Positions 1,602 through 63,078 of a DNA stretch of 64,000 nucleotides are shown one piece after another. A program made the position numbers and the translations under genes. The first letter of the stretch is position 1. Each line of letters starts with the position of its first letter. The stretch is from the NCBI GenBank assembly GCA_054600435.1, contig BAAIJX010000018.1:310001-374000 (forward strand). Reading direction: 5' to 3'. The notes below the pieces were generated by a model. That model had not been told where the DNA came from. It did not search any database and saw only the letters and a list, made by a program, of their open reading frames with translations. Source of the stretch: Neophaeotheca triangularis. Its lineage: Eukaryota.

Positions 1602-2044
1602 TGTTACGGGATTTCCCGAACACAGGATTTCATTAGTTAGTATAGAAGGATTAAGAGCTAAGGAACGTAGCGTCTCGACAAAACGCGGTCGAGCTGCATC
1701 CTAACCACACTTCGGCCGAAGACTTATGCTATGTCTCGCTTAGCTCGCGTCGAGACAGTCGACCTTGCTCGACTACTCGACGGGCGAGATGGCGAGCAGA
1801 AATCGACTATCTCGAGAACGAGACAGTCGAGACACACGAATCTCCTTTGTATTTAGGTAGCGACATTTCCTAGATAGAGATTTATGTTCAACTTATGTTA
1901 CAATCTTACTAAAAGGTCTATAGCGACACTTCACGTATCTTTGAAATCCTTACGACAAAGGAAACACCCTTGCTAGCCTTCTTCGATATCTCTCCTCTTC
2001 CGCTACGAGCTCTACCCGTGAGACTACCTTGTAGGATCGCAACA
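1602..2044 (+). repeat. 5' LTR of copy B
   Basis: TGTTACGGG...GGATCGCAACA. Differs from the 3' LTR at about nine positions, all RIP-type transitions. Confidence 0.97.
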
Positions 2045-2084
2045 CTTTGAACACCCTCTAGGAAAGAGAGATTAATAGGCAAGT

Positions 2085-4304
2085 ATGTCCCTATCCGATA
2101 ACCGAGACGTAAGCGTCGCTAGCACTTAACGAGGAGTATCGACTATGACGACTAATAAGGTTGCCAAACCGGACTACTTCTATAGCAAACGTAACAAGCT
2201 AGACGACTAGGTCAACTAGATGATGATGTTCTTTCTCATAGAAAGCATTAGTGAGTAGAAGCAACCTCTTACTACTACTTCTTTCCTTCGAGGAGAAGCT
2301 TAACACTAGATCCGCCCTAAGCTTACAGATTTCCTTATGGAATGAATCGACCCTAAAGGACTATTCTCGAACTAGAAGTCTTTTGTTAAGGTCATCCGCA
2401 ACGTCTATAGATTAAGCAACGATCGACAAGTTGCTATCTGAATGATTTAGCACCTCACGTAGAAAACGTCTACCTCTTAGTATACTGCCAAGTTTTAGGA
2501 GCACTTAGCTAAGACTGACTAGGACGACAACGCTCTTATGACTATGTACTATCGAGGACTTAAGGACAACGTGAAGGACGAACTTATACGCCACGGAGGC
2601 GATTAGTCAACTCTCCCCGGAATGATCAGATCGGCGATCGAAGTTAATGACGCGCTCTACGAACGGTTTATGGAAAAACGCCACACTAGACAATTTCGCG
2701 GACGAACTGGCTATGCTACCGGTAGCCGGCCTGTCGGTTAGCAACGTCGCGATCCTAATGCGATAGAACTCGACTCCACGTAACAGCGTCCTAAGAAGGG
2801 TAGGGATAGAGGACGGGGCAAACAGAACGCCCTAGGCAAGAAACGGAACGGACCGGAATGCTACAACTGCCACAAGATAGGGCACTATGCACGAGACTAC
2901 TATGGGAAATAGATGTACCCACGATAGGAGGTTAATGCGATTTTGACCCGATAGGATAACGACTCTCCTACTGATAAGAGCTGCGGAGCTTACGACATTA
3001 CCGGAACCTACGAAGAACCGGAGCATAACGAACTTCACTAGAGGTTTTGTAAGAGGGATTACTGTTTAGTGCACAAAAGTCAGGGACTAGTGACTAACGG
3101 AATACCTATTAGACCTCGGAAGGAAGTGAACGTCATCGAACGAGTTACCCTAAAGTCCGGAACGGACGCGCTAATCGAGCAATACTAGAAGCTTAGGGAG
3201 TTTCATGATAACTTAGTTAGTTATAAGGAGTAGACTGAAGAACACTTTAACCTTATAATCTAAGTAGCTAATCAAATAGCAGATCTCGACGACAGGATTA
3301 AGGCTACAGTAGACGAAGAATCTAAGCAACTATGTAAGCCTTAGAAGGAACTCAACATGATGTCAAGACGCTAACCACTACAGTAGTTAAGGGACGATAG
3401 TAATGTAGCCCGAGGAAGGTCCCTACCTCTATTTGCATAGGAGGACGACAAACTGCAAGAAAACCAAGCACCATCACCGATGATGGTACTACTAACACCC
3501 GACTTAGATAACGAAGAAATATCTTAGACACCGGAACTCACTACGATCATACTAACACTGGAGATTAGCCCCTTAAGACTATCGATGCCTCTAGAAATTC
3601 TAGAGTCTTAAGAAGACACGATAGTAATGGATTCCGAAGACGACTCCGAATACGAATATACCGACGACGAAGAACCCGATGATAACGATACCTTAGAGTT
3701 CATTGTGGAAGGACCCGCACCAATTAAGAAAATGGTTACCTACATCGCACGATCGTATAAAGAAGTGTTCCCAAGGATCCAAGGCAAACGACGCTTCGAA
3801 CCTAATCAATTCGAAGCCATGCTTATGCGACTACGAGCAATGTTCTAGGACTACCGAAAGGTCGCTGTCGAGTATGACGCCGCCACCTTTATCTAAGATA
3901 GGCTACTAATGGGAAGCACTTTCTACGGAGAAAACGGCTACATTATGCTAGATAGGATACGGATCCTATACACGATAAGATAACGAGTTAAGACAGTCAA
4001 GAATCGTTATAGAGAATTCTAGCTCATCTAGGAGCAGTAGAGAGAGGAAGAAATCATGCTTCAAGAAATGAAGAAACAAGCATAGGATTCCTTGGACCAA
4101 TAGACAATAGTACCACGCGAGAAGTTTCTACTACTAGTCGACCGAAAGATGATTCTCGGACATATTAGAGCGACTACACGAGGACCTATCACCGCATACG
4201 CAATCTAAGGAAAAGTCACGATTAGACCTTAGGACGGACCCCTTTACTAGGAAGTCTCTCTCGAGACAGCGGATTCATCTACCTACTTCTCAAAAAACGA
4301 ATAG
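2085..4304 (+). pseudogene. gag: gag of copy B (RIP-disrupted, ~739 codons)
   Basis: ATG at 2085. Zinc knuckle CYNCHKxGHYARD(C) at ~2860. ORF-track fragment 3627-3848 is in the same frame. Ends A AAA AAC GAA TAG (slippery heptamer 4292-4298). Confidence 0.85.
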
Positions 4305-7300
4305 GACCTATCGCTAAGAGCGAGCGTTAGGAACTAAACAACACAAATACTTAACACGAAATAGCATTAGGAACGGTCTTCCGAACAACATGTACTGTCG
4401 ATGGATATGAAACCTTTGCTATAATAGATTCCGGAGCTAGCGGAAACTTTATCTCGGAAACGTTCGTACATCAGTATGGGCTAGCTACCCAGAAGAAAAC
4501 AGATGGCGGGTACGAACTGATGGCCGTGGACGGCTTATCACTACCCGACGTAGATAGCGAAACAGTACCGCTACTACTTGTCTTCTAAGAGCATCATGAG
4601 CGAATTGTCCTAGATGTTATGCCTATAGCTAGACATGACATCGTTCTAGGCACTCCTTGGTTAGAACGACACAATCCTATAGTGGATTAGAGAAAACGAG
4701 TACTCACATTCGATAGGTGTAGTTGCGTCACTATAACCTACCCTGCGCGCCGGCAGCGATCGACGGCAGATGAGAGAAGGCAGATTAATGAAACGTATCG
4801 CCAATCGACTACGATACTAATACGAATTAGATCGAACTCTATAGGTACCGAACTAGCCTAAACGGACTAGTAGGTAAGAGTTGAGGAAGGAAGTCACGTA
4901 CCTTTAGATATCCCTAGAGAATTTAGGAAATAGAAGCGCCTTTTCTAGGAAGAGGAAGGAGTAGCCGCTCTACCTAGACATTAACTATAGGACTACCGAA
5001 TCGACATTCAGCCCGGTACGAAAATACCATAGGGGCCACTTTATGCGCTATCCGAAAAAGAGCTCGAAGAGTAACAATAATGGCTAGATAAAAAAATGAA
5101 GAAAGGATGGATTCGACCCTCCACTTCATTAGCCGCTTTACCACCGTTTTTCGTTCCGAAGAAAGGAGGAAAACTACGAATAGTTATCGATTTCAGACGA
5201 CTCAATGCGATCACCACTAAAAACCGTTATCCACTGCCTAACATCGACGAGATGAGAGATCGACTTACCGGTTCACACTGGTTCACTAAAATCGATCTCC
5301 GAGATGCATTCTATTTAGTTAGAATAGTAAGGGGGGAAGAGTGGAAAACAGCTTTTTGAACGCGCTACAGACTTTACGAATTCTAGGTTATGCCTATAGG
5401 ACTTACAAATGCCCTAGTAACCTGTTAGCAACTCGTTAACGACATCCTACGAGACCTACTCGATATTACTGTTATCGCCTACATCGACGACATACTGGTC
5501 TTCACGAAAGGATCACAAGAACAGCATACTAAGGACGTACACGCGGTATTCGGACGACTCGATAAAGTAGACTTTAGAACAGTACTAGAGAAATGCGAGT
5601 TCTACAAGAAGGAAGTCGACTTTCTAGGTTTTATGATTAGCACTACCGGGATCCGAATAGACCCGAAGAAAACTTAATCGATCGAGGAATGGCTAACACC
5701 TAAGTTAGTTAAGGACATCTAAGCATTCCTCGGATTAGCTAACTATAATCGGAAATTCGTGCAGGATTATTTAAGGCTTACTACGCCTCTAACTAACCTC
5801 ACGAAGAAGGACATACTATTCGTATAGGGAAAGATTTAACAACAATCCTTCGACAAGCTTAAGGAGTTATGCATGACTGCCCCTACGCTTAGGATGTTTA
5901 ACCCTAAGAGACCTATCTAAATCGAAACCGATGTATCCGATAGAGCAATAGGAGCTTGCCTTACGTAGGAGGTTGAAAGCAAACGACACCCTATCGCTTA
6001 CTTTTCAAGAAAGATGTCACTAGCGGAACAGAACTACGAGATCTACGACAAAGAACTGCTCGTAATCGTTGTAGCATTGCGATACTAGAGAGTATACTGT
6101 GAAGGAGTAACCGGACTGACTATTTACTCGGATTATAAGAACCTATAATACTTCACAACTACTAAGGAACTGTTACGCCGACAATGTAGATAGTTAGAGC
6201 TACTTAGACAATATAAGTTCGACATAATCTACACTCCTGGGAAAGACAATGGGCGCGCCGACGCGCTAAGTAGAAGAGGCGACTACATAGAAGGACACCT
6301 TCTATAGTAATACCGCATACTGAAGGTTAATAAGGACGGAAGCCTAAGTGCTAACCCTCGGGAATTTAACTTAGTACTGCGAGTACTACGGGATGATACC
6401 GAGGAATTCCCTGTCGAACATAGGAAGTTTAGGGTTCTAAACGAAAAGGAACGCCAGTACATCTAGGACCACTACGATAGACCTACTAACGGACATCTAG
6501 GAATCGCTAGAATAGTAGAACACATTAGACGCAACTTCGTGTTCCCTAGAATGAGACAGAAGGTCTTAGAGTACATCAAGAAATGTACGAGCTGCTAACA
6601 AAACAAAGCTTCGAGACACGCTAAATATGGAAACCTATAATTCTAGGAGCCACCGGATCTACCATGGAACGAGGTCACGATAGATTTCATCATTAAGCTA
6701 CCGAGATCTAGAGACCTATTAACAGACAAGGACTACGATTCGATCTTAGTCATAGTCGACAGACTTACGAAGTATTCACATTTCGTTCCCTATAATAAGA
6801 TAATTACTGTAGAAGAGCTCGGGTACCTTGTTCTCGACAGATTAGTACGATACCACGGCATTCTAACGGTTCTGATCACGGATAGAGACAAGCTCTTCAC
6901 ATCTAACTACTAGAAGACCTTGATTTCAGCAATCGGAGTGAAACACAAGCTATTAACAGCATTTCACCCGGAAACTGACAGACAGATAGAACGCTTAAAC
7001 TAATCCCTCGAAACGTACTTACGACATTATGTCAATTACGCTCAGGATAATTGGGTTGTACTCTTACCTATAGTACAGCTCGCACTTAACAACAATGCCT
7101 TAGAAACGACAGGCATAACTCCGTTCTACGCGAACTTCGGAAAAGATCTAAACACCTTTATGGAGCTAAAGCTAGGACTACTCGCGGAAAGAGCCCTATA
7201 AACATCTTCGCAGCTATAGGAAGCACACAAACAAGCGAAAGACAAGATCACGCAGTCGTAGCGGCGACTCGAATCGCAAAGACATAAAGACTCTAAAACG

Positions 7301-7726
7301 GCACCTTAGCTTAAGAAGGGGGATAAGGTGTACTTACTTACGAAAAACCTGAAGACAAGGAGACAAACACGAAAACTGGACCATGTCAAGGTCGGACCGT
7401 TTCTAGTTAAAGAACAAAGGGGAAAAGTCAACTACCTCCTCTAACTCCCGAGAGACGCTAGAGTCTATCTAGTATTCCATATATCCTTGCTCGAACCAGT
7501 AGACGCCGAAACACCTATCTAGGACACCTTCTACCACGATCTACTAGAGGAAGAAGCCGAATACGAGGTCGAAAAGATTCTAGATAAAGACGGTTAGAAC
7601 TACCTCGTAAAGTGGAAAGGGTATCCTACAAGCGAAAACACTTGGGAACCTAAGGACAACTTACTTAACTACTAGAAGCTGTTACGACAGTATCGCTAGG
7701 CAGGAAAGGGTCGGTCGCGTTGTTGA
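4292..7726 (+). pseudogene. pol: pol of copy B (protease, RT, RNase H, integrase, chromodomain), -1 frame relative to gag
   Basis: IDSGASGNF protease (~4425). RT fragment KKGWIRPS...FTKIDLRDAF (5096-5359) and YIDDIL (~5480). RNase H IETDxSD. Integrase. Chromodomain YEVEKILD...YLVKWKGYP.SENTWEP (~7562-7650). Internal stops are RIP-type. Confidence 0.93.
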
Positions 7727-8162
7727 TGAAGTCTAGCGATGACTAGACAGTAGGAGAAAGACCTACGGTCGCATCCGTAGCAGGACAATCCTCCGACTCT
7801 AGCTCTCCTAATACGTCTATCTCTAACATAAGACACTTAGCCTTACGGCGAGCACGCGCCTTAGCCTAACGAAGAATCGCTTTATTATGCATCAACCGAG
7901 CCATGATGCGAGCCAACTCCTCCTTATCCTTATCAACCTTTTTCTAGTATTCCTCCCGAGTACGATCTAGGGAAGCCTACGACAGATTGACGCACGCCTT
8001 GCCCTGACGAACGCACTCTAAACATTTCAGTCTAGAAGAACTCTCTATGGCGATGCAGTCGTGGCTAGAAGAAAAACAGCGATCATAAGGGAATAGAACT
8101 GGGTAACCGTTACGTTGAATCTCTTGAGTAAGACGAAGGCGGTTTTGTTTCGAGCGGGACAT
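7665..8162 (-). pseudogene. Antisense accessory ORF of copy B: Zn(II)2Cys6-like cluster plus coiled coil (~165 aa after RIP reversion)
   Basis: ORF track gives MSRSKQNRLRL...P[Y>C]DRC-x6-C-x10-CLEC-x6-C. The frame continues through TAG codons (revertible to TGG/CAG) to a stop at 7665 that overlaps the end of pol. Confidence 0.8.
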
Positions 8163-8252
8163 CGTAAGATGACGAGAGAAGAGAGAAGTGGGGAAAGGAG
8201 CTATTTACTAAGTTACGGACCGCTTAGGATAAGCGCCCTAGGAGAGGGATAG

Positions 8253-8695
8253 TGTTACGGGATTTCCCGAACACAGGATTTTATTAGTTAGTATAGAAGG
8301 ATCAAGAGCTAAGGAACGTAGCGTCTCGACAAAACGCGGTCGAGCTGCATCCTGACCACACTTCGGCCGAAGACTCATGCCATGTCTCGCTTAGCTCGCG
8401 TCGAGACAGTCGACCTTGCTCGACTACTCGACGGGCGAGATGGCGAGCAGAAATCGACTATCTCGAGAACGAGACAGTCGAGACACACGAATCTCCTTTG
8501 TATTTAGGTAGCGACATTTCCTAGATAGAGATTTGTGTTTAACTTATGTTACAATCTTACTGAAAGGTCTATAGCGACACTTCACGTATCTTTGAAATCC
8601 TTACGACAAAGGAAACACCCTTGCTAGCCTTCTTCGATATCTCTCCTCTTCCGCTACGAGCTCTACCCGTAAGACTACCTTGTAGGATCGCAACA
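8253..8695 (+). repeat. 3' LTR of copy B
   Basis: Direct repeat of 1602-2044, preceded by the PPT and followed by TSD GTTAA. Confidence 0.97.
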
Positions 8696-9329: not shown

Positions 9330-9929
9330 TTAACTACTAGAAGGCCCTATAACAATATCATTAGGACCGAAATCCTAAAGCTCGGAAGGAAGATCTAAGC
9401 TGTTAATAGTACTCTAGTCCTATATCGACATCTCTAGAATACTAATAAAGCCTAGACGCTACATAACCTTAACCCTAGTATTAACTAGACCTAAGAGATC
9501 TTCCTCTAACTAATCTACTTACTCTAAATCCTCTAACTCTCTAGACACTATAGTTTCCATATAACCCTTAGTATAATGAAGCTGTTTCTATAACCGCAAC
9601 TTTTTCGAATAATACTTATGTAGTTTTTGTAAAAGCTCGAGCTCCTCCTCCTTACACTCCTCTAACTACTATTATAGTTTGTTATGTAAATCTCTCCATT
9701 TTTCCTACTTAGGATAACTAAGCTTTATGTTATACTTAGTATACCCTTTATATATACATTCTGAACACTAACTAGATCGAGTACTAATCACATATCATAC
9801 TAGTTCAGCTAAAGGCGATTTCCTTATAGATCGGTAGGCTAAATAGGGTACTATATTAGTTATTCTAGACTTCTCGATTTTAGCTAAAAGATTAAGACGT
9901 TATTATTTATAGGATAGGGTAGAAGACAT
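9330..9929 (-). pseudogene. Antisense accessory ORF of copy A: divergent Cys6 cluster plus coiled coil (~199 codons)
   Basis: Manual translation from ATG 9929 stays in one frame to the same TCT AGT AGT TAA end seen in B and C. RIP-reverted pattern C-x2-C-x13-C-x8-CSEC-x7-C, followed by an E/K/L-rich helical region. Confidence 0.7.
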
Positions 9930-10015
9930 CGTGAAACTTAATAACAAAAAACGATATAAGGAATAACGGAACTTTATTAGGCTTCGAGGACAAAGCTAGG
10001 CTAAAAGGGGGATAG

Positions 10016-45355: not shown

Positions 45356-45511
45356 AGGAAGAGCCGGTGGTACCGGAACGGCTATTTCGGCTTTGTCTGC
45401 GTTTGTTGACAGAAAAGGGGGGAATGGCAGCTTTTATTACCTTTGTAGAGACTATGACAGTAGACTAGCTTTTCGGAGATACAACCCCATATGCAGAATC
45501 TAGCTCTTCCT
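45356..45511 (+). repeat. 5' LTR of element D (156 bp, AGGAAGAGC...GCTCTTCCT)
   Basis: Matches 61132-61287 except for three RIP-type transitions. 9-bp perfect terminal inverted repeat. Confidence 0.9.
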
Positions 45512-46269
45512 AGTGACCACGCCAGGGGTGTGAACTTCTCGGAGTCCCGTCTCTAAGATGGAATGAAAATACTGTTATCAGACATCCCCGTAGCAAATAA
45601 GCACGAGAAGCGACCATAGACGTATGTAGAGAACAAAACGGAAACAGTAGCACGAGCAATAGAGATAATAGTAATATAAGAGAGACTAAGCCATTAACAA
45701 GAGAACGTAGAAGGACAAGGGACGAAGTATCTACTAGTAAGAATCTATAGAGTACTAAACGTGTAGTAAAGGAAGTTTCATGACAGAAGCTAGCAATTCG
45801 TAGTACTAAAGAATGACCCCATAAGAAGAGAATCACAGACAAGCTACACGGATAACGATAGGAAGACGTGGACTACCTATAAGAGATAGCGGCAACGCAA
45901 TTGAGCGGTAAGCGCCTTTTAATAGTAGAAGTAGCCTTTCATTTTTAGGGGGTAAGAATTAGAATTAAAGAATCTGGAAGAATGAGTAACTGATCACTAT
46001 TAGAAGCCTTAGACACTATACTAATACTAAACTCACTATCGACCACGGAACGCACCCTAAGTAAAGACCGTTATTAACAAGGAGTTAGTCTACTATCATT
46101 AAGTAGCCTACCTACCTTCGAGAACTAAAGCTACTGTTATAAGCCTATGCCGTTCCTACTACCTATCGACAAAACGATCTAGTAAAGTCAACCTACTATT
46201 AGTTTCAAGTCCCCCGACAGATCAAAACCGATACTAAGATTAAAAGGATTCGCTAACCTAAAATCAACT

Positions 46270-48830: not shown

Positions 48831-49199
48831 GCTAGCTCAGTAGACGCTATTCACACTAATCGAGTACTGTAGATAGTAGTATAGTGCATAAAATACGAAG
48901 TCCGGATTCGTAGTAAGTAGTGTCTTCAATACGACAATGTCCTAGGTATAAAGCAATTAAGCGAAGCAATAAGTGAAACGACCGTAGACGATATACCACT
49001 ACTACTATATAGATACGAGACCTCCTATAACTACCTATACTACTAATAGTCACTCGAACTCGAAGTCAACTAGACTACTATGATAACCGAGTCTAGAAAG
49101 TAAGGGATAGCTATCCTAAGACTAGTCGTCCACTAAGACATTATGTATACATAGTCGCTCTATAAACTACGACAATAGGTAGACGAAAAGGGCATTAAG

Positions 49200-49634
49200 T
49201 GTTATGAACATAACACATGTGACGGAAACACTAACAAACGATTAGCATACTACAGTATAGGCTAGTAGGAGCGCCTAGGAACTGAGTAAGTAGCTTAGCG
49301 TAGAACTAAGCGAGCTGCTTAGTACTACTTAAACTGCTAAGGACTACTGAGCATAACTGAGTAGAACTGCTTAGTAGTGATTAGGGTGATTAGTACTACT
49401 AAGTAAGACTGATTAGGACTAATCACATGAATCTCCTATATATATATTATAACCGAGTTTCTTAGATAGGTGTTCGTGTTTAACTCATGTTATAATCTTA
49501 CTAAAAGGTCTACTACTACTATTCACGTATCTTTAATCCTTACAATAAAGGAAACACCCTTACTAGCCTTCTTCGATATCTCTCCTCTTCTACTACGAGC
49601 TCTATCTATAAGACTACTTTATAGGATCGTAACA
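49200..49634 (+). repeat. 5' LTR of copy C
   Basis: TGTTATGAAC...GGATCGTAACA; direct repeat of 55948-56382. Confidence 0.95.
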
Positions 49635-49674
49635 CTTTGAACACCCTCTAGGAAAGAGAGATTAATAGGTAAGT

Positions 49675-51897
49675 ATGTCCCTATCTAATAACCAAGACGT
49701 AAGCGTCACTAGTACCTAATGAGGAGTATTAACTATAGCTACTAATAAGGTTACCAAACTAGATTACTTCTATAGCGAACGCAACAAGTTAGATAACTAG
49801 GTCAACTAGATGATAATGTTCTTTCTTATAGAGAGCGTTAGTAAGTAGAAGCAACCTCTTACTACTACTTCTTTCCTTCGAGGAGAAGCCTAATACTAGA
49901 TCTACCTAAAGCTTATAGATTTCCTTATAGAACGAATCGACCCTAAAGGACTATTCTCGAACTAGAAGTCTTTTGTCAAGGTTATCCGTAACGTCTACAG
50001 ATTGAGTAACGATCGACAAGTTGCTATCTAAATGATTTAACACCTTATGTAGAAAACGTCTACCTCTTAGTATACTACTAAGTTTTAGGAGCACTTAGCT
50101 AAGACTAACTAGGATGACAATACTCTTATAACTATATATTATCGAGGACTTAAGGACAACGTGAAGGATGAACTTATACATCATAGAAGCGATCAGTCAA
50201 CTCTCGCCAGTATAATTAAGGCGGCGATCGAGGTTAATGATACGCTCTACGAATAGTTTATAGAAAAACGCTATACTAGACAATTTCGCGGATAAACTAG
50301 CTATACTACTAGCAGCCGGCCTGTCAGTTAGCAACATCGCGACCCTAATACGATAGAACTCGACTCTACATAACAACATCCTAGGAAAGGTAAGGATAGA
50401 GGATAGGGCAAACAGAATACCCTAGGCAAGAAACGGAACGGACCGGAATACTATAACTACTACAAAATAGGGCACTATACACGAGACTACTATAGGAAAC
50501 AGATATGTCTATGATAGGAGGTCAATACGATTTTGACCTAATAGGATAACGACTCTCCTATCGATAAGAGCTACGGAGCTTATAACATCACTAGATCAAA
50601 GAACGACCTAGATAAACACGACGAACTTCACTAGAGGTTTTGCGAAAGGGATTACTACTTGATGTATAAGAGTTAAGGACTAATCACTAACGGTTTATCT
50701 ACTAAACCTTAGAAGGAAGTAAACATCATTAAATGAGTTACCTTAATGTCCGAAACGGACGCACTAATTGAGTAATTCTAGAAGCTTAAAGAGTTTCATG
50801 ACGACTTAGTTAGTTATAAGGAGTAGATAGAAGAACACTACAACCTTATAGTCTAAGTAGCTAATTAGATAGTAAACCTAAATTATAGGATTAAGGCTAA
50901 AGTAGAGGAGGAACTTAAGCAACTACATAAACCTTAGAAGGAACTCAACATAATGTCAAGACACTAACTACTATAGTAGTTAAGGGATAACGGTAATGTA
51001 GCCCGAGGAAGGTCCCTACCTCTATTTGTATAGGAGGACGACAAACTACAAGAAAACTAAGCACTATTAAGAATGACGGCACTACCGACACCTAACTCAG
51101 AAAATGAAAACATATCTTAGACACCGGAACTCACTACGATCGTACTAATACCGGAGATTAGCCCTTTAAGACTATCTATGCCTCTAGAGATCCTAGGATT
51201 ATAAGAAGATACGATAGTAACGGATTCCGAAGATGACTCCGAAAACGACTATACTAACGATAACGAACCAGATAACAACAATATAGTAGAGTTTATTGTA
51301 CATAGACCAAACCCAATCAAGAAAATGGTCATTCACATCGTATAGTCATATAAAGAAGTGTTCCCAATAATCTAAGGCAAACGATGCCTAGAACCTAACT
51401 AATTTGAAGCTATACTCATATAATTATGAGTAATATTCTAGGACTACCACAAGGTTAATGTCGAGTACGATGCTACCACTTTTATCTAGGACAGGCTACT
51501 AATAGGAAGCACATTCTATAGAGAGAACGGTTACATCACGCCAGATAGGATATGCATCCTACACACGATAAGATAACGAGTTAAGATAGTCAAGGATCGC
51601 TATAGAGAATTCCAACTCATCTAAGAGCGATAGAGAGAAGAGGAAATCACGCTATAAGAAATGAAGAAATAAGTATAGAATTCCTTGGATTAATAGATAA
51701 TAGTACTACGTAACAAGTTCCTACTACTAGTCGACCGAAAGATTATTCTTAGACACATTAAAGTAACTACATGAGGACTAATTACTATACACATAATCTA
51801 AGGAAAAGTTATGATTAAACCTCGGGACGGACCCCTTTATTAGGAAGTCTCTCTCGAGATAGCGGATTTATCTACCTACTTCTTAAAAAACGAATAG
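49675..51897 (+). pseudogene. gag: gag of copy C
   Basis: Colinear with 2085-4304. Ends with AAAAAAC (51885-51891) GAA TAG. Confidence 0.85.
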
Positions 51898-54800
51898 GAC
51901 CTATCGCTAAGAGCGAGCGTTAGGAACTAAACAACACAAATACTTAACACTAATAAGCATTAGGAACGGTCTTCCGAATAATATATACTGTCGACGGATA
52001 CGAAACCTTTACTATAATAGACTCCGGAGCCAGTAGAAACTTTATCTCGGAAACGTTCGTGCATTAGTATAGGCTAGCTACCTAGAAGAAAACAGATAGT
52101 AGGTACGAATTAATAGCTGTAGACGGCTCATCACTACCTAACGTAGATAGCGAAACAGTACTACTACTACTTATCTTCTAGAAGTACTATAAGCGTATTA
52201 TCTTAGATGTCGTGCCTATAGCTAGACATGACATCGTTCTAGGTACACCTTAGCTAGAATAACACAATCCTATAGTGGATTAGAGAAAACAAGTACTCAC
52301 ATTCGATAGGTATAGTTATATCACTACAACCTACCCTACGCGCTAGTAGCGATCGACAGTAGATAAGAGAAGGTAGATCAACGAAACGTATCGCCAATTA
52401 ACCATGATACTAATACGAATTGGATCAGACTCTATAGGTACCGAACTAGCCTAAACGGACTAATAAGTAAGAGTTAAAGGAAGAAGTCATATACCTTTAG
52501 ATATCCCTAGAGAATTCAGAAAATAGAAGTACCTTTTCTAGGAAGAGGAAGGAGTAGCCGCTCTACCTAGACATTAACTATAGGACCACTAAATCGACAT
52601 TTAGCCTAGTACGAAAATACTATAGGGGCCACTTTACGCGCTATCCGAAAAAGAGCTCGAAGAGTAATGATAATAGCTAGATAAGAAAATGAAGAAAGGA
52701 TAGATTCGACCCTCTACTTCATTAGCTACTTCACTACCGTTTTTCGTTCTAAAGAAAGGAGGAAAATTACGAATAGTTATCGATTTCAGATGACTTAATA
52801 CGATCACTACTAAAAACCGTTATCTACTACCTAACATCGACGAGATAAGAGATCGACTCACTAGTTCACACTAGTTTACTAAAATCGATCTCCGAGATAC
52901 ATTCTATTTAGTTAGAATAGTAAGGGGGGAAGAGTAGAAAACAGCTTTTCGAACGCGCTATGGACTTTACGAATTCTAGGTTATGCCTATAGGACTCACG
53001 AACGCCCTAGTAACCTGTTAACAACTCGTTAACGACATCCTACGAGACCTACTCGACATTACTGTTATCGCTTACATTAACGACATATTAGTCTTTATGA
53101 AGGGATCACGAGAACAGTATACTAAGGACATATATACTATGTTCGAATGACTTAATAAGGTAGACTTCAGGATAGTACTAGAGAAATGCGAGTTCTATAA
53201 AAAGGAAGTCGACTTCCTAGGCTTTATGATTAGCACTACTAGAATCCGAATAGACCTAAAGAAAACTCAATCGATTAAGGAATAGCTAATACCTAAGTTA
53301 GTTAAGGATATCTAGGCATTCCTCAGACTAGCTAACTACAATCGGAAATTCGTGAAGGATTATTCAAGGCTCGCTATGCCTCTAACTAATCTCACGAAAA
53401 AGGACACACTATTCGTATAGAGAAGGATTTAACAATAGTCCTTCGACAAACTTAAGGAGTCATATACAACTGCTCCTATACTAAGGATGTTTAACCCCAA
53501 GAAACCAATTCAGATCGAAACCGACGCCTCTAATAGAGCGATAAGGGCTTACCTCATATAGGAGGTTAAAAGCAAATAACACCCTATCGCTTACTTTTCA
53601 AGAAAGATGTCACTAGTAGAACAGAATTATGAGATCTACGATAAAGAACTACTCGTAATCGTTATAGCATTACGATACTAGAGAGTGTACTATGAAGGAG
53701 TAACTAGACTCACTATTTACTCAGATCATAAGAACCTACAATACTTCATAACAACCAAGGAATTGTCACACTAGTAATGTAGATAGTTAGAGCTACTTAG
53801 ACAATACAAGTTCGACATAGTCTACACTCCTAGAAAAGACAATAGGCGCGCTAACGCACTAAGTAGAAGAAGCGACTACATAGAAGGCTACCTTCTATAA
53901 CAACACTATATACTAAAGGTTAATAAGGACAGAAGCCTAAGCGCTAATCCTTAGGAGTTTAACTTAGTACTACGGGTACTATAGGATGACACTAAAGAAT
54001 TCCCTATCGAACACGGGAAGTTTAGGGTTCTAAACGAAAAGGAATGCTAGTATATCTAAGACCACTACGATAGACCTACTAACGGACATCTAGGAATCGC
54101 TAGAACAGTAGAACACATTAGGCGTAACTTTATGTTTCCCGGAATGAGATAGAAGGTCTTAGAGTACATCAAGAAGTATACAAGCTACTAACAAAATAAG
54201 GCTTCTAGACATACTAAATACGGAAATCTTCAATTCTAGGAGCTACCGGATCTACCATGGAATGAGGTCATAATGGATTTCATCGTCAAACTACTAAGGT
54301 CTTAGGACCCATCAACATATAAGGACTATAATTCAGTTCTAGTTATAGTTAACAGACTCACGAAGTATTCACATTTTGTTCCCTATAACGAGACAATTAC
54401 TATAGAAGAACTAGGATACCTTATCCTCGATAGATTAGTACGATACTACAGCATTCTAACAGTTCTAATTATGGATAGAGATAAGCTCTTCACATCTAAC
54501 TACTAGAAGACCTTAATATTAGTAATAGGAGTGAAACATAAGCTCTCGACAGCATTTCACCCTAAGACTAATAGACAAACAGAACGCTCAAACTAATCCC
54601 TCGAAACATACTTAAGACATTACGTTAACTATGCTTAGGACAATTAGGTAGCGCTCTTACCTATAGTACAGCTCGTACTTAATAACAATGCCTTAGAAAT
54701 AATAGGCATGACTCTATTCTATACAAATTTCGGAAAAGATCTAAACATGTTTATAGAACTAAAGCTAGGACTACTTATAGAGAAGGCCCTACAAATGTCT

Positions 54801-55350
54801 TCATAGCTATAGGAAGTACATAAATAGGTAAAAGACAAAATTACATAGTCATAATAGCGACTCGAGTTATAAAGACATAAAGACTCCAAAACGGCACCTT
54901 AGCTTAAGAAGGGGGATAAGGTATACCTACTTACGAAAAACCTGAAGATAAGGAGACGAACACGAAAACTAGACTATATCAAAGTCGGACCGTTTCTAGT
55001 TAAAGAATAAAGAGGAAAAGTTAATTACCTCCTCTAACTCCCTAAAGACGCTAGAGTCTACCTAGTCTTCTATATATCCTTACTCGAACTAGTAGACCCC
55101 GAAACACCAATCCAAGACACCTTTTACCACGATCTACTAGAGGAAGAAGCCGAGTACAAGGTCGAAAAGATTCTAGACAAGGACGGTTAGAACTACCTCG
55201 TAAAATGGAAAAGATACCCTATAAGCGAAAACACGTAGGAACCTAAGGATAACCTACTTAACTACTAGACGCTTCTACGACAGTACTACTAGTATCGAAA
55301 CCCTAGAACTTGGACGACAAGTCGAAACCACTATCTAAGGCGTTCTAGGT
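51885..55350 (+). pseudogene. pol: pol of copy C (PR-RT-RH-INT-chromodomain)
   Basis: Colinear with pol of copy B. Chromodomain at ~55155-55265. 3' end approximate. Confidence 0.9.
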
Positions 55351-55851
55351 AGAGGGCGATAAGTTTACGCCAAGATCTAATAAGGGCTTATCTAACGCAA
55401 CAACCTCTATAGCTTCTATACGCTCCTCTTCCTCTTACTACTCGATATTAGCCTCCTCTATAGTAATAGCCTCCGCTTCCTACCCTTCTAAAAGGTCGAG
55501 TTAATAGCGTAACCTTTACTCTCGAGTAAAGGTAGTGCTTAGAGCGTCCTAAGCGGCCTCTTTAGCCTTCCTTACAGCCTACTAAGCGTTAAATGCTTCT
55601 TGAATAGATACGTATAGTTTAGAACGCTCGCGTTTTAACCGCTCCTATTCTGACTACATTACCTAAAGATCACACCTCTAACCACGATACAAATAGTCGC
55701 TACACTTTCTAGACCGCACGTACACGCGACAAACACGCTTATACTTCACGTAAGTAGAACAAGCCTTAACCATAACTTCGCCGTTCGATTTGATGAAGTC
55801 CGCTAGTTAGCGACGTCAGATTATGCTTCGGCCGAGACGAGGATTAGGCAT
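55258..55851 (-). pseudogene. Antisense accessory ORF of copy C: Zn(II)2Cys6-like cluster plus coiled coil (~197 aa after RIP reversion)
   Basis: MPNPRLGRS...ACST(C)VK(H)KRVCRV(H)VRS(G)KCSD(C)LxRG(Q)RCD, i.e. C-x2-C-x6-C-x8-C-x2-C-x6-C. One frame to TCT AGT AGT TAA at 55258. Confidence 0.8.
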
Positions 55852-55947
55852 CGCGAAAGGAGAAGAGTTATGATAAGTAGAGATGTAGGAATACAACGAG
55901 ACCTATAACGTTAGCGTCGAGACGACGCTAGTATAGAAGGGGAGTAG

Positions 55948-56382
55948 TATTACGAACATAACATATATGACGGAAACACTAACAAACGATTAGCACACTA
56001 CAGTATAGGCTAGTAGGAGCGCCTAGGAACTAAGTAAGCGGCTTAGCGCGGAACTAAGCGAGCTACTTAGCACTACTTAAACTACTAAGGACTACTAAGC
56101 ATAACTGAGCAGAACTACTTAGTAGTGATTAGGGTAATCAGTACTACTAAGTAAGACTAATTAGGACTAATCACACGAATCTCCTATATATATATTATGA
56201 CCGAGTTTCTTAGATAGGTGTTTATGTTTAACTCATGTTATAATCTTACTAAAAGGTCTACTACTACTATTCATGTATCTTTAATCCTTATGATAAAGGA
56301 AACACCCTTACTAGCCTTCTTCGATATCTCTCCTCTTCCGCTACGAGCTCTATCCATAAGACTACCTTATAGGATTATAACA
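55948..56382 (+). repeat. 3' LTR of copy C
   Basis: Follows PPT AGAAGGGGAGTAG. Starts TATTAC (RIP form of TGTTAC), ends ATAACA. Confidence 0.95.
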
Positions 56383-56387
56383 TTAAG

Positions 56388-59300
56388 ATAGGGTCCTACG
56401 TTCTAGAGGACGACCTTCTCGATGTCTTGTAGACCCTCTAGATATACCGTGATCTCGAATCTATAGGAGTAGACACTCTCGGGCCGCTAACAGACCTAAT
56501 CTAATACCGAACTACAATTAAGGAGGGCATGCCAATTTATAAGGCGAAAGTAAAAGTCATAGCTAAGGACAAGGAGTAGTAGTATCGTAAGTTCGTACTA
56601 GACGGATTAGAGTCTAGACTTTTCGAGAGAATAGTCCGAGCTAATAGGAAGCTCTCGTAGTAGGGAGCCGACCTAGTACTAGTAAAAAAGGAGGGTAAGG
56701 AAGAGCCTCGACTCACTTTTAACTACTACTATATTTAGGAGGAGCTACTAGGGAACTAAATATAGCTATTAAGGGAAGCTCATAGATTTTTGTCCTTACT
56801 AACTCACTAATGCTTTTCTTTATTCGACTTGAAGAACGGGTACTAGGTAGTAGAGATTCACCCTAATAATAGACACCTCCTTACATTTAGCGTACCTAGG
56901 GTAGGATAGCTATAGCCGACGCGGATAGCATAAGGCGCTAGATCCTCCTCTTTCATATTTAATGAATTAGGGAACATTATACTTAGTGCCCTCGACGGCC
57001 TATATCCGGAGCTATCCCTCCTCTATTATAGAGATAGGCTAGGACTCCTACTACATATAACGTTCTATATAGACGACATGTTCGTAGCACACTCAAATTG
57101 GACTGATTACTAGAACTTTATAAAGTGCTACTTACTACCGCGCTTCCTCTAGGCTAGACTCTATCTCACCCTATTAAAGGTAAAGATTAGAGTCGACTAG
57201 ATCGTTACACTTAGGGAACTCTACATTACTAGAGGCAAATCATCCCCGAAACTACTTAGGGTATAGAAGTTACTCGACTAGCCCTAACTATAGAACTAGA
57301 CTAAAGTGAGATCATTCCTTAGTATAGCACTCACTATACGTTAGTACATTAAGAACTATGCCGAAATCGCCCGACCCCTTAATAGACTGACTAGAAGCAC
57401 CTTAGAGTAGTAGTGGTCGGATCTAGAGCAGATAGCGTTCATTATGCTCAAAAACCTTATAGCTTTAAAGGTTATACTATTTAGTTAGGATCCTATACTA
57501 CTAGTAGAGATGTATGTAGATGCTTCAAGCTTCGCTATAGGATGCTTTATTTAGTAACTCTAGAATGAGAAATGGGTACTAATACTATACGATTCATTCC
57601 TCTTCCTAACTACTAAGAGGAACTACGATACCTATAAGCGAGAGCTGAAAGCGATCGTCACCTTTACGACGAAGCATTCCTACATACTCTATTGCCTAAT
57701 CGAGTCTACTGTTTAGACGGACTATAAGCTACTCACTAAGTTTCTAATAAGTAGTATGCATGAGGACATCTTCTTCTAGTACCTAGAAAAACTCTACCTA
57801 CTAAACTTTCGTATCTAATATATCGAAGGCGAGCGTAATGTAGTAGTAGACGGCCTCTCCCGCACCATTTTTTCCCCTAATTGTAATCTAAGCGAAGAGA
57901 ATGAGGCATTACTTTAGGAGGTCTAGAGGCATAACCGCTAGCTAGAAAACGAGTAGTTCTAGAAGTCTAGTAAGGGAGGCTACTTAGAGTAGCTCAGGTC
58001 TAACTATAAGAAGCCTAAGGAAGAAAAGATCGACAGCTTTATAATAAAACGAAGTAGAGAGGACGACAATTATGCTGTCGAGCCCGATAACCCTACTAAA
58101 TAAACAGAACCGGACTAAGAGCTAATAGTTAAGCCTAAGTATAGGAACAAAAGAAGCTGTATAGTATAATTAGGACCCTATATAAACGAACTTTATAGTA
58201 CTCCTAAGAGCGAACTCTTTAAAAAGAACCTTTATCGGAAGTACTACGCATCCTATTATCACGAGAAAAACATGGCTATAAGTAAGCGAAGGGAAATAAA
58301 TAAGGCAAACTAGAAGAGCATCGCTAGCCGCTCCGGTAACCGAAGAATCCCTAAAGGGTCTACCTACGCTAATCCGCATTGTAGATAGTAGAAGAAGGGA
58401 GTGAACTACTTATAAGCTGACGATACGATCCTTTACCGCTTCTATTAGGAGAGGTAGTATAAAGAGCGTATTAAAGCGGAGAAAGCTAATAGGGAAATGA
58501 CCGATACTTAGTAGTAGGTAAGGTAATAGAAGCCTAGTATAAGACCGAGGAGGACAATAAAGGTAGAAGAACCTATATTCTAGGAGTACTAGAATGAACA
58601 TTACTAGGCTAAGGTAGTGTCGGTTACAATAGGTCCTAGAGGTATAGTACTCTACTAGAGTTACTACTACCGCTAGATAGGGGAGAAAGGGGATAAGCTA
58701 TCCGACGAATAGAAAATACTAGACCTAGAGTAAGGAGTTAGCACACTAAGCTAGGGATACTCTACCCCTATCATTACCTCGATAGCCCTATATAAGCGTT
58801 TACATAGAGCATGTAAGGATCTCATAAAATGCCCTTATCTTTACTATTAGGCGAAGATGATAAGCATCGACGACACTACTATAGAAAAGAAGAAATTCAA
58901 GAACCTTCCGAGCTCTATAGCGTATTACCTCTCGGACCGCCCCTATTACGACAAGGCTTATTAGAACTATAATAGGAGTCAATACATACATTAGTACTAT
59001 CGAGTAAAGCACTACTAATATCTAGAGAAACACGAGGGTTGTGATCGCCTAACATGTGAATATGACTACTATAAGATATAGGTTATATAGGTAGAAAAAC
59101 GCATCCTCGCTAAGGAAAATCTAGAAGAAGAGCTACTATTTCGTATAGCGGATCTTGATCGCCTATATGAAGAGGTAAAGAAGAAGGCCTTAGTACGCTG
59201 ACCCTAGACTAACTATAAGAATCATCACGAGCTCTAAGAGCTACTCTATAAGTAGAAGGACATATTGTAGAAGATAGCTAGCTTCAAAATCTTCCTCTAA

Positions 59301-61133
59301 AAGGATCGACTAGGAGCTTTAAAGGAGCTAGAGGTAGAGGGAGAGTAGGAGATGCCCAAACTCGGCGAACTAAGTGAAGAAGAGTCTAAAGTTAAGCGTG
59401 ATGTATAAGTAAGTCTAGAGATTAATGCTGACCCTAAATTGTAATAGGTTCTAAGGGTAGCGCGACCCGATAAGGAGCGCCTCCCTATCCTCTACTACCT
59501 AGGAGGAAGGGCTCCTACTAGCGAAGCTAGAGATAGTAGTATAGTCGATAATTTAAGGTCCTACTTTAGAGGAGTAGCCCTATCTAAGTTGACTATAACT
59601 ATAGCGAAGGCTATACTAGTATAGCTTGAAGTTAAAGTTAACCTAGTAGATATAAACATAGAGCCTAACTTTAATCGAATTTAGGACAATTAGTATAGAG
59701 ACCTAATAAGATACTTCTAAAAGAAGGGTATACCCTCGGATTAGACCGAGTCTTAGACATACTACTTCTATAGGTATATAAAGGAGTACTAGTACGACTA
59801 AGAAACGAGGAAGCTTAGCTGTTATTCTAATAGGTAGTAGCTCCTATACGTCGACTCTAAGGACGTAGGGAAGATCCTCTATTCAGCTTATAATCGTAAC
59901 AGCTACTTTAATTCGAAGATCGTCGCGAAGAAGCTAAGAGCACGCTTGTTCTAGCCTACTATAGTTAAGGATATTAAGGATTATACTAACTCCTACATGA
60001 AGTACACGATGTTTATCTAGCGAGTTAAGAGTGAGCCCATATAATCACTAGACGTACTCTACCCCTAGGAGCTTGTCTAGGTAGACCTCGTAGGCCCCTA
60101 GCTAGAGTTAAAGTATAGGAATGTATAACTACTAGTCGTAACTTGCTGCTTTTCTAGGTACACTATTACTCGAGCTCTCCTAGGAAAGTCAGGTTAGTAT
60201 ATAGTATAAGCGCTCGAGGAGATCTTTGACATGTTAGTAAATCTACTAGTGTTATATATAGATCTAGGGAAAGAGTTCATTATAGGAATAGTTGTCGAGA
60301 CTATAGAGTCGCGAGGGATACTACTCAAGTTTGCCCTACTAGTAGCTTACCGCCTAACTAGAGTAGTCGAGAACATTAATCGGATCCTCTAGCGAAGTAT
60401 AGAGAAGTCCATGCCGATTTATCGAGATAAAAGGGGTAACGCTATTAACTTAGTTTAGGAGTAGGACTGCATAGCTCAATATAGTACCTAAGTAGCGAAT
60501 TAACGCTTCGTCGCCTATTTAGGCTTCTCTCTATCTAAGGTACTACTAGGATACCTTCCGGATAATCTAAAGGATACCGAGAACATGTACCCTACTTAAC
60601 GCCGTAAGCAAGTCACTACATTAATAGATAGTATGAAGCTCGAAGACATTCCTAATAGGGACCTATTCCTTTCAAGTTTTAGCTTAGTAATAAAGCGGTA
60701 TAAAGATCGAGAGTTAGCTCGGATAAACAAGGAACGGGATTATAAGGTCCGAACGAAGGCCTTTAATCATGGCTTAAAAAGATCGAAGGTCAAGATTAGG
60801 GACTAGGTATTCTACTAGCTAACGATACCGCTATTAAGGAAGGGTATCGATCCGTTCTAGGAAGGCCCCTTTCGTGTCGTTAGGTACTCAGGCGAGAACA
60901 ACAAGTCTATAATCCTAGAAAGACTAAACGAGAAGGCTAAGCAACGCGACCTTTACTCGTATATATAGCTAAGGCATCTTAGTAGAATGCGGGTGTTCCT
61001 ACCGAGACCGAAGAGAATAAGACCTCCCCCTAGGGCCGATAAGATTATTAGAGAAGGCGGAGATGATAAGGAGGTAATGGAGGAAGCGATTGAAGAGTTA
61101 GTCGGGGTGACTAAGTTGGAAAACGGTAAGTAG
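56388..61133 (+). pseudogene. pol: pol (RT, RNase H, large insertion, integrase) of element D, resuming after copy C
   Basis: A single reading frame carries the RT, RNase H and integrase motifs. Stops checked were RIP-type TAG/TAA. Confidence 0.85.
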
Positions 61134-61287
61134 GAAGAGCCGGTGGTACCGGAACGGCTATTTCGGCTTTGTCTGCGTTTGTTGACAGAAAAGGGGGGAA
61201 TGGCAGCTTTTATTACCTTTATAGAGACTATAACAGTAGACTAGCTTTTCGGAGATACAACCCCATATGCAGAATCCAGCTCTTCCT
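61132..61287 (+). repeat. 3' LTR of element D
   Basis: Direct repeat of 45356-45511 followed by AACCC. Confidence 0.9.
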
Positions 61288-63078
61288 AACCCCAATGTCT
61301 TCACTCCTCCTCTGTGCTTGATCGAACTTGTCTCTGTGATGCTGCATTCTTGTCCCCCGGCTTCCTTGTGCACTCTCAACTTGCTGCCCATGGCAGTCGA
61401 TTTGGGCTTTTACGTGGTCTCCACATTTCGGTTTCGAGTATAGGCTGTAATATCTCTTCCCAAGTTCAGCCATTTCTTACCGCTCTCGGCACCTAGATGC
61501 ATTCCATCTGCACGGCAATGGCAGCGATGCCGGTGCCTGCAGGGCACCTGTATCATTAGACCTGGAGCGGTTGTCCTGGTATTCTGTGCCCGTTTTTGCC
61601 GAGAGGGACCCATACAAGTCGGTCGAGTGCTATGATTTTCTAGTTTGCGTCTCAATGTGGAGCATTTTCAGGCTACATCACCTAGCCACGCCTCATTCCC
61701 GAGATTTCGCAACTCAATGCACAATTTCCAAGGCTCTCGGCGCCCGAATCATCTTGATCTGGCTGGCCACGGTAATGGCCCTGCGTTTCTGCTACTTTGA
61801 GAACGGCCTCTTTGGTAGACAGCTTGCAGGTAACGTATGCTCATTGTCTCGCCGAGTAGACGCCCAACGACCGCTTTGAAACCCAAATGGCCTCATTTAC
61901 CTTCCAATGCATAGCATTCAAGACTTGCATTGCAATTTTGGTGAGCAACATCTGAAATTTTGCACACTTGATGCAGCGGTTCCCCTCCCGGCGCAGGAAC
62001 GCAGTATGATCAAGCTGGCCACGACAAAACCACTGGTGGCGAGCTGATCCTGTCCTTGGTAATCGAAAGTCTGGTTCAAGCCAATGCTTGCTTGTTTCCT
62101 GCCGACAGCGGTTCCTGTTGAACTCAAAACATCGCAAACCTTCTCGATGGTAGAGTTTCGGCACTTAGATGCGGTTTTTGAACCGCCAATGCTGCTGCTT
62201 TCGGCGCCTAATGCACGATAGAAAGCGTTCTCGGCATGAAAAATTGCCCTTTTCCTGGCCACGGAGGAGAGCCGGACGGTGTCTTGCTTGTGCTTCCATT
62301 GAGTGTAGTGACTGTGACATAGTGAAGTTTATTGCTCGTTGCCGCCGAGAAAGAGTGTCGGAAGCCATGCGAAAGGACTGTTTACCGGCGATTTCTTCCA
62401 GTGCATGCCCCTTGCAATTGATCTGCGGGAATTTTCCACTCGTATGCCCGTCAGCCGCCCGGTATAACCTGCTCCCGGCGCATGTCTTCTGCACTTTTGA
62501 AGCACCGTCGGTGGCGATACCGCTGCGATGCTGGAAATTGTCTCGGTTTGCGGCTCCCAGTCTCAAGCCATGCAGCGCCCACACTTGCACCAGGGACAAC
62601 TTGCATGGATATCTTTGGCGCCTAGTAAGGGGTATCCGCGGCCACCATTGTTTCAGACCACGTCGAACCACGGTACAGAAGCCACAAAGAAGTGCAGATG
62701 TCGGGATCGAACGGCTGTCATTTCCAGACTTCTGGCTTCTCTCGTCCATTCTCTAGCGCGCGACGGGATGCAGCCAATCATCCAAAGGCTCACGTCTCGA
62801 CCTCCACTTCACGTCATGGCACCGATCAGCATCTTCGGCATCCACAATGTCAAAGTATGGGTCGTGATAATTCTCCGGCGCGTATTCGTAGGTAAGGTAG
62901 TGGCAACTGAGCCAGGAGGCCGTCATCAACGTAACTCGCAAAGACCCGCCGCGGAACCACACACGAGAGTGATTCTTCTCGCCACCGGGATTCATCTGGT
63001 CAATCTTGGGAATCAAACCACAGCTCCATTATCCCTCCCAACCAGTACATTGGACACACTAGAAGCCCCAAAGCAACA

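Follow-up and report, generated by a model that had tools for sequence, protein, structure and literature searches.

Does a stop-ridden reading frame on the strand opposite gag-pol, in a retrotransposon that is itself dead, record a real gene, and what would the product of such a gene do? This question is raised by a stretch of 64,000 nucleotides (nt) from Neophaeotheca triangularis (the window; assembly GCA_054600435.1, contig BAAIJX010000018.1, positions 310,001 to 374,000), which contains three copies (A, B and C) of a long terminal repeat (LTR) retrotransposon. In copy C, an antisense frame lying between the end of pol and the 3' LTR had been proposed, in an initial annotation made from the letters of the DNA, to be a selected, retrotransposon-encoded Zn(II)2Cys6 transcription factor, obscured by repeat-induced point mutation (RIP) and possibly transcribed antisense from the 3' LTR. 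The follow-up analysis described here demonstrates that this antisense accessory open reading frame (aORF) of copy C is a RIP-inactivated relic of an accessory gene, and that living elements of many ascomycetes carry this gene in conserved form and under purifying selection. The core of the proposal, a selected, retrotransposon-encoded and Zn2Cys6-like protein, is supported, and the parts concerning a transcription factor, an activator and transcription from the 3' LTR are a reasonable inference. On balance, a reading as an accessory gene of a fungal chromovirus lineage, encoded antisense and acting as a zinc-bound dimeric DNA-binding regulator, is slightly favored.

The antisense relics in the window

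On the minus strand, the copy C aORF runs in one frame through 198 codons, counting the terminal TAA, and is interrupted by 16 internal stops (11 TAG, 4 TAA and 1 TGA). The codons of the putative zinc module read exactly as had been claimed, with four intact Cys (C31, C41, C50 and C60, all TGT), a TAC at Y34, a TAT at Y53 and the spacing x2-x6-x8-x2-x6. A change from TGC/TGT to TAC/TAT is of the RIP type, and RIP in copy C is real. The dinucleotide indices of copy C are 1.70 for TpA/ApT and 0.48 for (CpA+TpG)/(ApC+GpT), and those of the genic part of the window (12000-44000) are 0.71 and 1.21, respectively. Between copies B and C, transitions account for 773 of the 864 substitutions, mostly C-to-T at CpA and CpG.

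The relationship of copy C to intact proteins was assessed with hhalign, which matched a profile of 133 intact homologs to this reading across 148 columns (probability 87.7%, E 3.4e-6). Residues C31, Y34, C41, C50, Y53 and C60 fall on the six conserved Cys columns. Because this alignment runs in a single frame, the 198 codons contain no frameshift, as had been stated, and the two positions at which Cys had been restored by reversion are Cys in the intact relatives. The stop at residue 69, where Trp had been guessed, aligns with a Trp that is conserved in the family. On the other hand, tblastn with eight intact homologs at E<=1e-3 found copy B only and neither copy C nor copy A, so that for copy C homology is argued from the profile match, the position and the motif. 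Pfam searches with the readings of the aORFs of copies A, B and C gave nothing relevant and no Zn_clus match. The final approximately 10 codons of the copy C aORF resemble copy B, a resemblance explained only by their overlap with the conserved end of pol.

The carrier is a Ty3/gypsy-group chromovirus, with which the domain order, the LTR pairs and the 5-bp target duplications all fit. The three copies were defined by self-comparison of the window and by reading of the element ends (Table 1). In copy B, read with X at stops, the Pfam domains are ordered aspartyl protease, RVT_1, RNase H, integrase zinc domain, SH3_Tf2-1 and Chromo, and the domain order of copy C was inferred from this homologous copy. 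All three copies have the antisense frame between the pol end and the 3' LTR, and the aORF start codons are located 96 (C), 90 (B) and 86 (A) nt inside the LTR edge, just past the polypurine tract. In the copy B motif, five Cys are intact and Y26 (TAT) occupies Cys position 1; since Tyr stands at position 1 in copy B and at positions 2 and 5 in copy C, the two copies complement each other. The profile match of the copy A aORF (E 0.039) is not significant by itself. As a control for chance, a relaxed six-[C/Y] pattern with at least four Cys was searched in all six frames of the window and in 50 block shuffles; it occurred twice in the window, in the aORFs of copies C and B, versus a mean of 0.1 and a maximum of 1 in the shuffles. 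Nothing is expected to be expressed from this window because copies A, B and C are all dead: the gene copy present here is a RIP-killed relic, and intact versions occur in other fungi.

Table 1. Positions of the antisense frames and their carrier elements, numbered from the first letter of the window
Feature	Position	Strand	Remarks
Copy C aORF relic	55258..55851	-	198-codon single frame; profile match E 3.4e-6
Copy C six-Cys motif	55672..55761	-	C31-x2-Y34(TAC)-x6-C41-x8-C50-x2-Y53(TAT)-x6-C60
Copy C, complete RIP-mutated Ty3/gypsy chromovirus	49200..56382	+	TTAAG duplication at 49195-49199 and 56383-56387
Copy C 5' LTR	49200..49634	+	92% identical to 3' LTR
Copy C 3' LTR	55948..56382	+	inner edge 96 nt from aORF start codon
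Polypurine run of copy C	55935-55944		inside 3' LTR edge
Divergent block of copy C (aORF, polypurine tract and 5' half of U3)	55285..56150		approximate borders
Copy B, complete element	1602..8695	+	LTRs 1602-2044 and 8253-8695, 98% identical; duplication GTTAA
Copy B aORF	7665..8162	-	166 codons, 4 internal TAG stops, 59-63% identical to intact homologs
Copy A	1-1601 plus 8696-10434	+	copy B inserted within copy A
Copy A aORF relic	9330..9929	-	200 codons, 15 internal stops; second CxxC alone intact

Intact relatives, linkage to LTR elements and purifying selection

A homology search with the copy B reading returned 12 intact proteins of 105-255 amino acids (aa), the best named match being a Cercospora kikuchii hypothetical protein with 59% identity, and C-x2-C-x6-C-x10/11-C-x2-C-x6-C is present in every intact member of that alignment. 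In a profile search of 1.84 billion representatives, 438 clusters (50% identity) were found at E<=1e-3, 190 at E<=1e-10 and 28 at E<=1e-30. Among the matches listed, the complete six-Cys pattern occurs in 57 of 150 clusters and, for representatives of at least 140 aa, in 53 of 80, or 66 of 80 when Tyr is allowed. The C3-C4 spacing of these representatives is x10 in 23 and x8 in 17, and the x10 of copy B and the x8 of copy C are therefore natural variants. Cys is thus present in intact homologs at both of the positions reverted in the initial annotation, a check that had been set in advance. A second, word-indexed search yielded 353 proteins at E<=1e-5, with named sources among Dothideomycetes (Cercospora, Elsinoe, Periconia, Sporormia, Hortaea and Macroventuria) and lichen fungi (Xanthoria and Variospora), and a third search with seven distant members as queries added distant family members in Verruconis. 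The UniRef label of the Periconia homolog is Zn(2)-C6 fungal-type domain protein. Family proteins are now annotated as "hypothetical" or as host "Zn(2)-C6 domain" proteins, by which counts of fungal transcription factors are inflated with transposon genes. Of the family proteins P0285 and P0291, one is labeled as coming from a Thermoplasmatales archaeon metagenome-assembled genome and one as "ribosomal protein S27E"; since the gene belongs to a fungal transposon, both labels seem to be mistakes of binning or annotation.

The genomic context of the family was investigated at 68 loci obtained from a scan of metagenome contigs, with copy B pol (X at stops) as a tblastn probe. At 65 of these loci, a pol match lies directly downstream of the open reading frame (ORF), convergent and on the opposite strand, at a distance of -31 to +266 nt. 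The nearest match is the integrase/chromodomain at 64 loci and the reverse transcriptase (RT) at one (L030); the three loci with no pol match have flanks of 14 nt (L021), 5 nt (L054) and 394 nt (L016). Copies A, B and C of the window and these 65 loci all have the gene antisense to gag-pol, past the pol stop and before the 3' LTR. The association of homologs with LTR elements, likewise chosen beforehand as a check, was thus found, and the description as retrotransposon-encoded is borne out; with a convergent pol alongside at 65 of 68 loci, gene and element travel together. Several contigs are 6.1-6.8 kb long, some of them with overlapping ends, as expected of an assembled repeat. At L024 and L034, where both LTRs are present, the ORF is located 68-69 nt inside the LTR, and at 14 of 16 intact loci the 3' end of the ORF overlaps the end of pol by 4-201 nt. 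In the 255-aa family member P0014, a C-terminal extension reads into the antisense of the chromodomain end, and the same residues occur past the stop in the window copies; the extension is an independent sign that the P0014 gene also abuts pol.

The ORF frame is open over the whole match at 28 of the 68 loci, and the broken ones are mostly of low GC content and RIP-like. For the ratio of nonsynonymous to synonymous substitution rates (dN/dS), 17 full-length ORFs of 47-58% GC were compared in 136 pairs by the Nei-Gojobori method, leaving out L006, whose protein is identical to that of L005, and ten low-GC or partial ORFs. The median dN/dS is 0.21 (range 0.07-0.37) over the 88 of 136 pairs with finite dS. 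When the comparison is limited to the first 120 codons, a part free of any overlap with pol, the median becomes 0.18 (range 0.04-0.71; 73 of 136 pairs). In the same DNA, the ORF frame contains 0 stops versus 37-129 in each of the other five frames. Furthermore, the amino-acid identity of the ORF tracks that of the integrase-chromodomain over 36 locus pairs. The claim of selection is thus upheld by a dN/dS of 0.18-0.21 and by a stop-free frame, and the frame is almost certainly a real, selected, element-encoded gene.

Predicted architecture of the protein

The protein is predicted to consist of approximately 160-180 residues, with a basic N-terminal helix, a six-Cys module, a helix of approximately 55 residues and an acidic tail. 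Across the family, the module follows C-x2-C-x6-C-x7-12-C-x2-C-x6-C and is modeled as a binuclear Zn2Cys6 cluster resembling that of Gal4, and the tail contains the conserved motif DCPAA...SP..W. The predicted local distance difference test (pLDDT) score of the AlphaFold2 model was 66 with 12 sequences and 84.7 with 133 sequences, with 92-96 for the N-terminal blocks and about 97 for the long helix. In the model, helices are placed at residues 4-19, at 28-33 and 49-54 (each right after a CxxC) and at 63-119, followed by a low-confidence tail; a short helix at residues 141-154 spans the conserved SP..W motif. The consensus of the first sub-motif, from C1 to C3, is C-D-R-C-F-L-S-G-H-P-C, with a Lys or Arg between C2 and C3 in only 67 of 133 members, and that of C5-C6 is V-R-x-G-R/K-P, with at least two basic residues in 124 of 133. 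The net charge is +3 for the cluster and +3 for the helix, and the N-terminal half is net basic. Past residue 113, the tail is acidic in 133 of 133 members, with a median net charge of -9 over about 54 residues; the tail of copy C is also acidic, in keeping with the description given of it at the outset.

The structural neighbors of the model are of one kind. With the first (12-sequence) model, Zn2Cys6 DNA-binding domains made up 17 of 18 Foldseek rows among the matches listed; with the second (133-sequence) model, all those listed at ranks 1-20 were Zn2Cys6 domains (15 of the 21 listed rows). They include Pho7, Put3, Hap1, Gal4, Ppr1, Leu3, AlcR and chain 1cld (template modeling (TM) score 0.61 by target), which is listed only as "DNA-binding protein" and which we take to be Lac9. 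In VIA-align, model residues 21-61 superpose on Ppr1 at 1.5 A over 34 residues (Z 2.1), on Pho7 at 1.9 A over 36 (Z 3.0), on 1cld at 2.0 A over 33 (Z 2.6) and on Leu3 at 2.1 A over 37 (Z 2.3); the two rows of higher Z are matches of the long helix. At the sequence level, Zn_clus is the Pfam family weakly matched by most members (8 of 12; best E 0.02), and for P0005 the Zn_clus score is 11.5 bits, covering only profile positions 20-32. The canonical Zn(II)2Cys6 spacing claimed in the initial annotation is right; the sequence itself departs from the canon, Zn_clus being under the Pfam threshold in all 12 members scanned. The module is predicted, with considerable confidence, to be a Zn2Cys6-like zinc cluster.

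The long helix was further considered in a dimer prediction with two chains of residues 20-122 and four zinc ions, run without a family alignment; the calibration was run without ligand. The prediction scored 0.61 versus 0.01 for the best control, a value that may reflect memory of coiled coils, with runs agreeing in at least 95% of contacts and a partner pLDDT of at least 81. In the calibration, 21 of 30 proteins solved as homo-pairs attained the mark, versus 0 of 23 solved as single chains, and for eukaryotes 17 of 29 versus 0 of 30. The predicted contacts 98-73, 77-94 and 84-87 correspond to an antiparallel coiled coil, which would place the two clusters at opposite ends. As a model only, this prediction supports a possible dimerization through the long helix.

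Matches in the ESM Atlas can serve as leads only. By features, they were ascomycete clusters with no names (0.79-0.92), and by structure, with P0005 residues 1-65, mostly Zn(2)-C6 clusters; one structural neighbor is a cluster that is 99% Pfam DUF3716 (TM score by query 0.71, 62 residues aligned). In the search of Protein Data Bank (PDB) sequences, a match to MAGUK (E 1.9) was dismissed as chance.

Possible function, rival explanations and known systems

Based on the predicted architecture and the position of the gene, a possible sequence of events may be outlined for intact elements. An antisense mRNA could start in U3 or in the 70-100 nt spacer inside the 3' LTR, and the protein translated from it may enter the nucleus as a zinc-bound dimer. 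The dimer would then recognize specific DNA, most plausibly the U3 of its own element, and the acidic tail could stimulate transcription. For the protein as such, a role as a DNA-binding regulator is somewhat better than an even bet, and the more specific role as an activator of the LTR of its own element is a tentative proposal, rather less likely than not.

Several results weigh against this reading. In Foldseek searches of the PDB, no match was obtained at E<=1e-3, the best being Pho7 at E 0.58, and the fold matches are individually insignificant (Foldseek E>=0.58; Z 2.1-3.0), significance being out of reach since the domain is too small. The Pfam gathering threshold of 21 bits for Zn_clus (PF00172) was reached by none of the 12 members, and among PDB sequences a profile search with a cut-off of E<=10 recovered nothing of the zinc-cluster type. 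That all six Cys are invariant in the family alignment (A5) is a circular result, as its members were chosen by that very pattern. In Gal4 and Ppr1, basic residues between Cys2 and Cys3 contact the CGG half-site; the first sub-motif of the present family is without the basic residues that form these contacts in Gal4. The predicted dimer is antiparallel, unlike the parallel dimers of the Gal4 type. In addition, no recurrent spacing was found for CGG-Nx-CCG, CCG-Nx-CGG or direct CGG repeats when the upstream 226-600 nt of 11 intact ORFs were searched, and for this reason no binding site is proposed.

A connection between the protein and U3 may be considered from the divergence of the copies. In 250-nt windows across gag-pol, the identity of copies B and C is 80-90% (median 0.85); from about 55285 to about 56100, it falls to 0.36-0.38 in the divergent block (Table 1), and it recovers in the remaining LTR. 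Copy A differs from both B and C across this block; whereas gag-pol is about 85% identical among all three copies, the block can hardly be aligned between them. The corresponding divergent blocks are located at 7700-8480 in copy B and 9390-10200 in copy A. Among live elements, L006 and L012 share 93-98% identity along pol and 34-83% in the ORF region, the drop being abrupt where pol ends; the comparison of L006 with L013 showed no sharp break there. Because the collapse of identity is confined to the block, the ORF behaves as a module that can be exchanged, in the window jointly with U3. This behavior is the sole observation here that ties the protein to U3, and the tie is indirect. That a widespread lineage of ascomycete chromoviruses carries a transcription factor and its target U3 as one recombining cassette, with a private activator-promoter pair in each sub-lineage, is a speculative and rather unlikely extension; if true, it would provide a fungal counterpart of retroviral trans-activators, and solo LTRs could rewire host genes.

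Two further searches concerned transcripts. No sequencing run recorded as RNA was found to hold locus L013, the 17 rows returned being Logan contigs with shares of 0.07-0.24, and no poly(A)/poly(T) ends were found on the contigs shorter than 9 kb among the 68 loci. As a separate observation, both LTRs of copy B open with TGTTA followed by a CGG-N6-CCG inverted repeat (1607-1618 and 8258-8269), the half-site arrangement of Ppr1. The repeat is absent from copies A and C, its spacing is unrepeated in 11 other elements, and it may be a chance occurrence.

Three other explanations were weighed. According to one of them, the frame arose by chance in AT-rich DNA mutated by RIP, or it is all or part of a host gene for a transcription factor that lies next to or inside the copies. 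Such an explanation could draw on the invisibility of copy C alone to tblastn and Pfam and on the frequency of Tyr codons in RIP-mutated DNA; it is very improbable in view of the presence of the ORF in three copies, the profile match of copy C at E 3.4e-6, the convergent pol at 65 of 68 loci, purifying selection and the two occurrences of the pattern versus 0.1 in shuffles. A role in negative regulation or copy-number control is of another kind: the product could be a DNA-binding repressor of the 5' LTR, or the antisense transcript could pair with genomic RNA and lead to silencing. The aORF and pol overlap convergently at 14 of 16 intact loci, by which any antisense mRNA would be complementary to the genomic RNA, and the review of plant antisense ORFs, in the available part of its text, raises the possibility of double-stranded RNA together with a retroviral parallel (PMC7264820). 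However, a role of the RNA only fails to explain a dN/dS of about 0.2 and the conserved Cys and tail motifs, and the acidic tail, found in 133 of 133 members, is more a feature of activators. A repressor protein would still be compatible with both of these points, and negative regulation as a whole is considered unlikely.

The remaining explanation retains the zinc module and assigns it to the binding of protein or RNA, the product serving as an adaptor in the life cycle of the element, for example in nuclear import, integration-site tethering or particle assembly. Such a module would fit a sequence below the Pfam threshold, a first sub-motif that is not basic, an antiparallel predicted dimer and no CGG-type site among 11 upstream regions, and a DUF3716 cluster is among the structure neighbors in the ESM Atlas. 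Nevertheless, the best structural neighbors are consistently DNA-binding Zn2Cys6 domains and the N-terminal half is net basic, and an adaptor of this type is given a low probability.

The position and the kind of gene are already known, in plants for decades and in Boty since 2011. Boty, from Botrytis, has the antisense gene brtn between pol and the 3' LTR (Zhao et al. 2011, Virology 417:248, as cited in the available portions of PMC8365987, PMC7264820 and PMC4227169), and its domains are given as gag, ZnF_C2HC, RP, RT, IN and CHROMO in the accessible text of PMC4227169. Compared by description only, Boty resembles the present carriers in being an ascomycete Ty3/gypsy chromovirus with an extra gene that lies between pol and the 3' LTR on the opposite strand. 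No named matches from Botrytis or Sclerotinia were present in the 12-homolog, 353-protein and distant-member searches. A Monilinia transcript similar to Pol and BRTN is mentioned in the available part of PMC5987419. In plants, antisense ORFs located between pol and the 3' LTR (aORF-3R) include gene23 of maize Grande and those of rice RIRE2, Silene Retand and Phaseolus PvRetro13; Grande gene23 has its own upstream promoter and encodes a nuclear protein, and antisense-ORF proteins are described as resembling no known protein, with undetermined functions (2020 review, PMC7264820, in the portion of the text available). The plant genes share with the present family the same position and orientation, presence in most copies and a conservation about like that of other element proteins. 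They differ in being carried largely by non-chromoviruses and in having no resemblance to known proteins, in contrast to the Zn2Cys6-like module, coiled coil and acidic tail predicted here.

With respect to Gal4-type Zn(II)2Cys6 proteins (PF00172), the likeness extends to the Cys spacing, which falls within the C-x2-C-x6-C-x5-12-C-x2-C-x6-8-C of that class, and to occurrence in fungi. In the model it would further include a short helix at each CxxC, superposition at 1.5-2.1 A over 33-37 residues and the predicted layout of a minimal DNA-binding module, a dimerizing helix and an acidic tail. In contrast, the present family has a sub-threshold Pfam score, basic residues in the second sub-motif, a helix of approximately 55 residues with predicted antiparallel pairing and no middle homology (Fungal_trans) region, and it is encoded by a mobile element.

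HBZ of human T-cell leukemia virus type 1 (HTLV-1) is a bZIP protein that is encoded by an antisense gene driven from the 3' LTR and represses the 5' LTR. As in the present case, with its putative regulator, a regulatory-type protein is encoded on the minus strand beside the 3' LTR of a reverse-transcribing element; the proteins differ in that HBZ is a bZIP, with nothing homologous to it here and no bZIP among the Pfam matches of the 12 members. The 3' LTR of HTLV has an antisense promoter, according to the available part of PMC7264820.

Within the searchable literature, three things appear to be new: a recognizable zinc-cluster architecture, the wide spread of the family and an exchange resembling that of a cassette. 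In a literature search outside of which most subscription journals lay, no fungal LTR retrotransposon was found described as encoding a zinc-cluster protein, and the words "antisense" and "zinc" are absent from the survey of fungal LTR elements PMC3248453. The readable architecture, together with hundreds of intact relatives and clear purifying selection, makes the function of an antisense gene experimentally approachable.

Finally, copy C sits within a second, heavily RIP-mutated Ty3/gypsy element (45356-61288), the TTAAG duplication marking the insertion. No six-Cys ORF was seen in this outer element. Its 157-nt terminal repeats (45356-45512 and 61132-61288) are 98% identical, and RT_RNaseH is located on the plus strand at approximately 57.4-57.8 kb.

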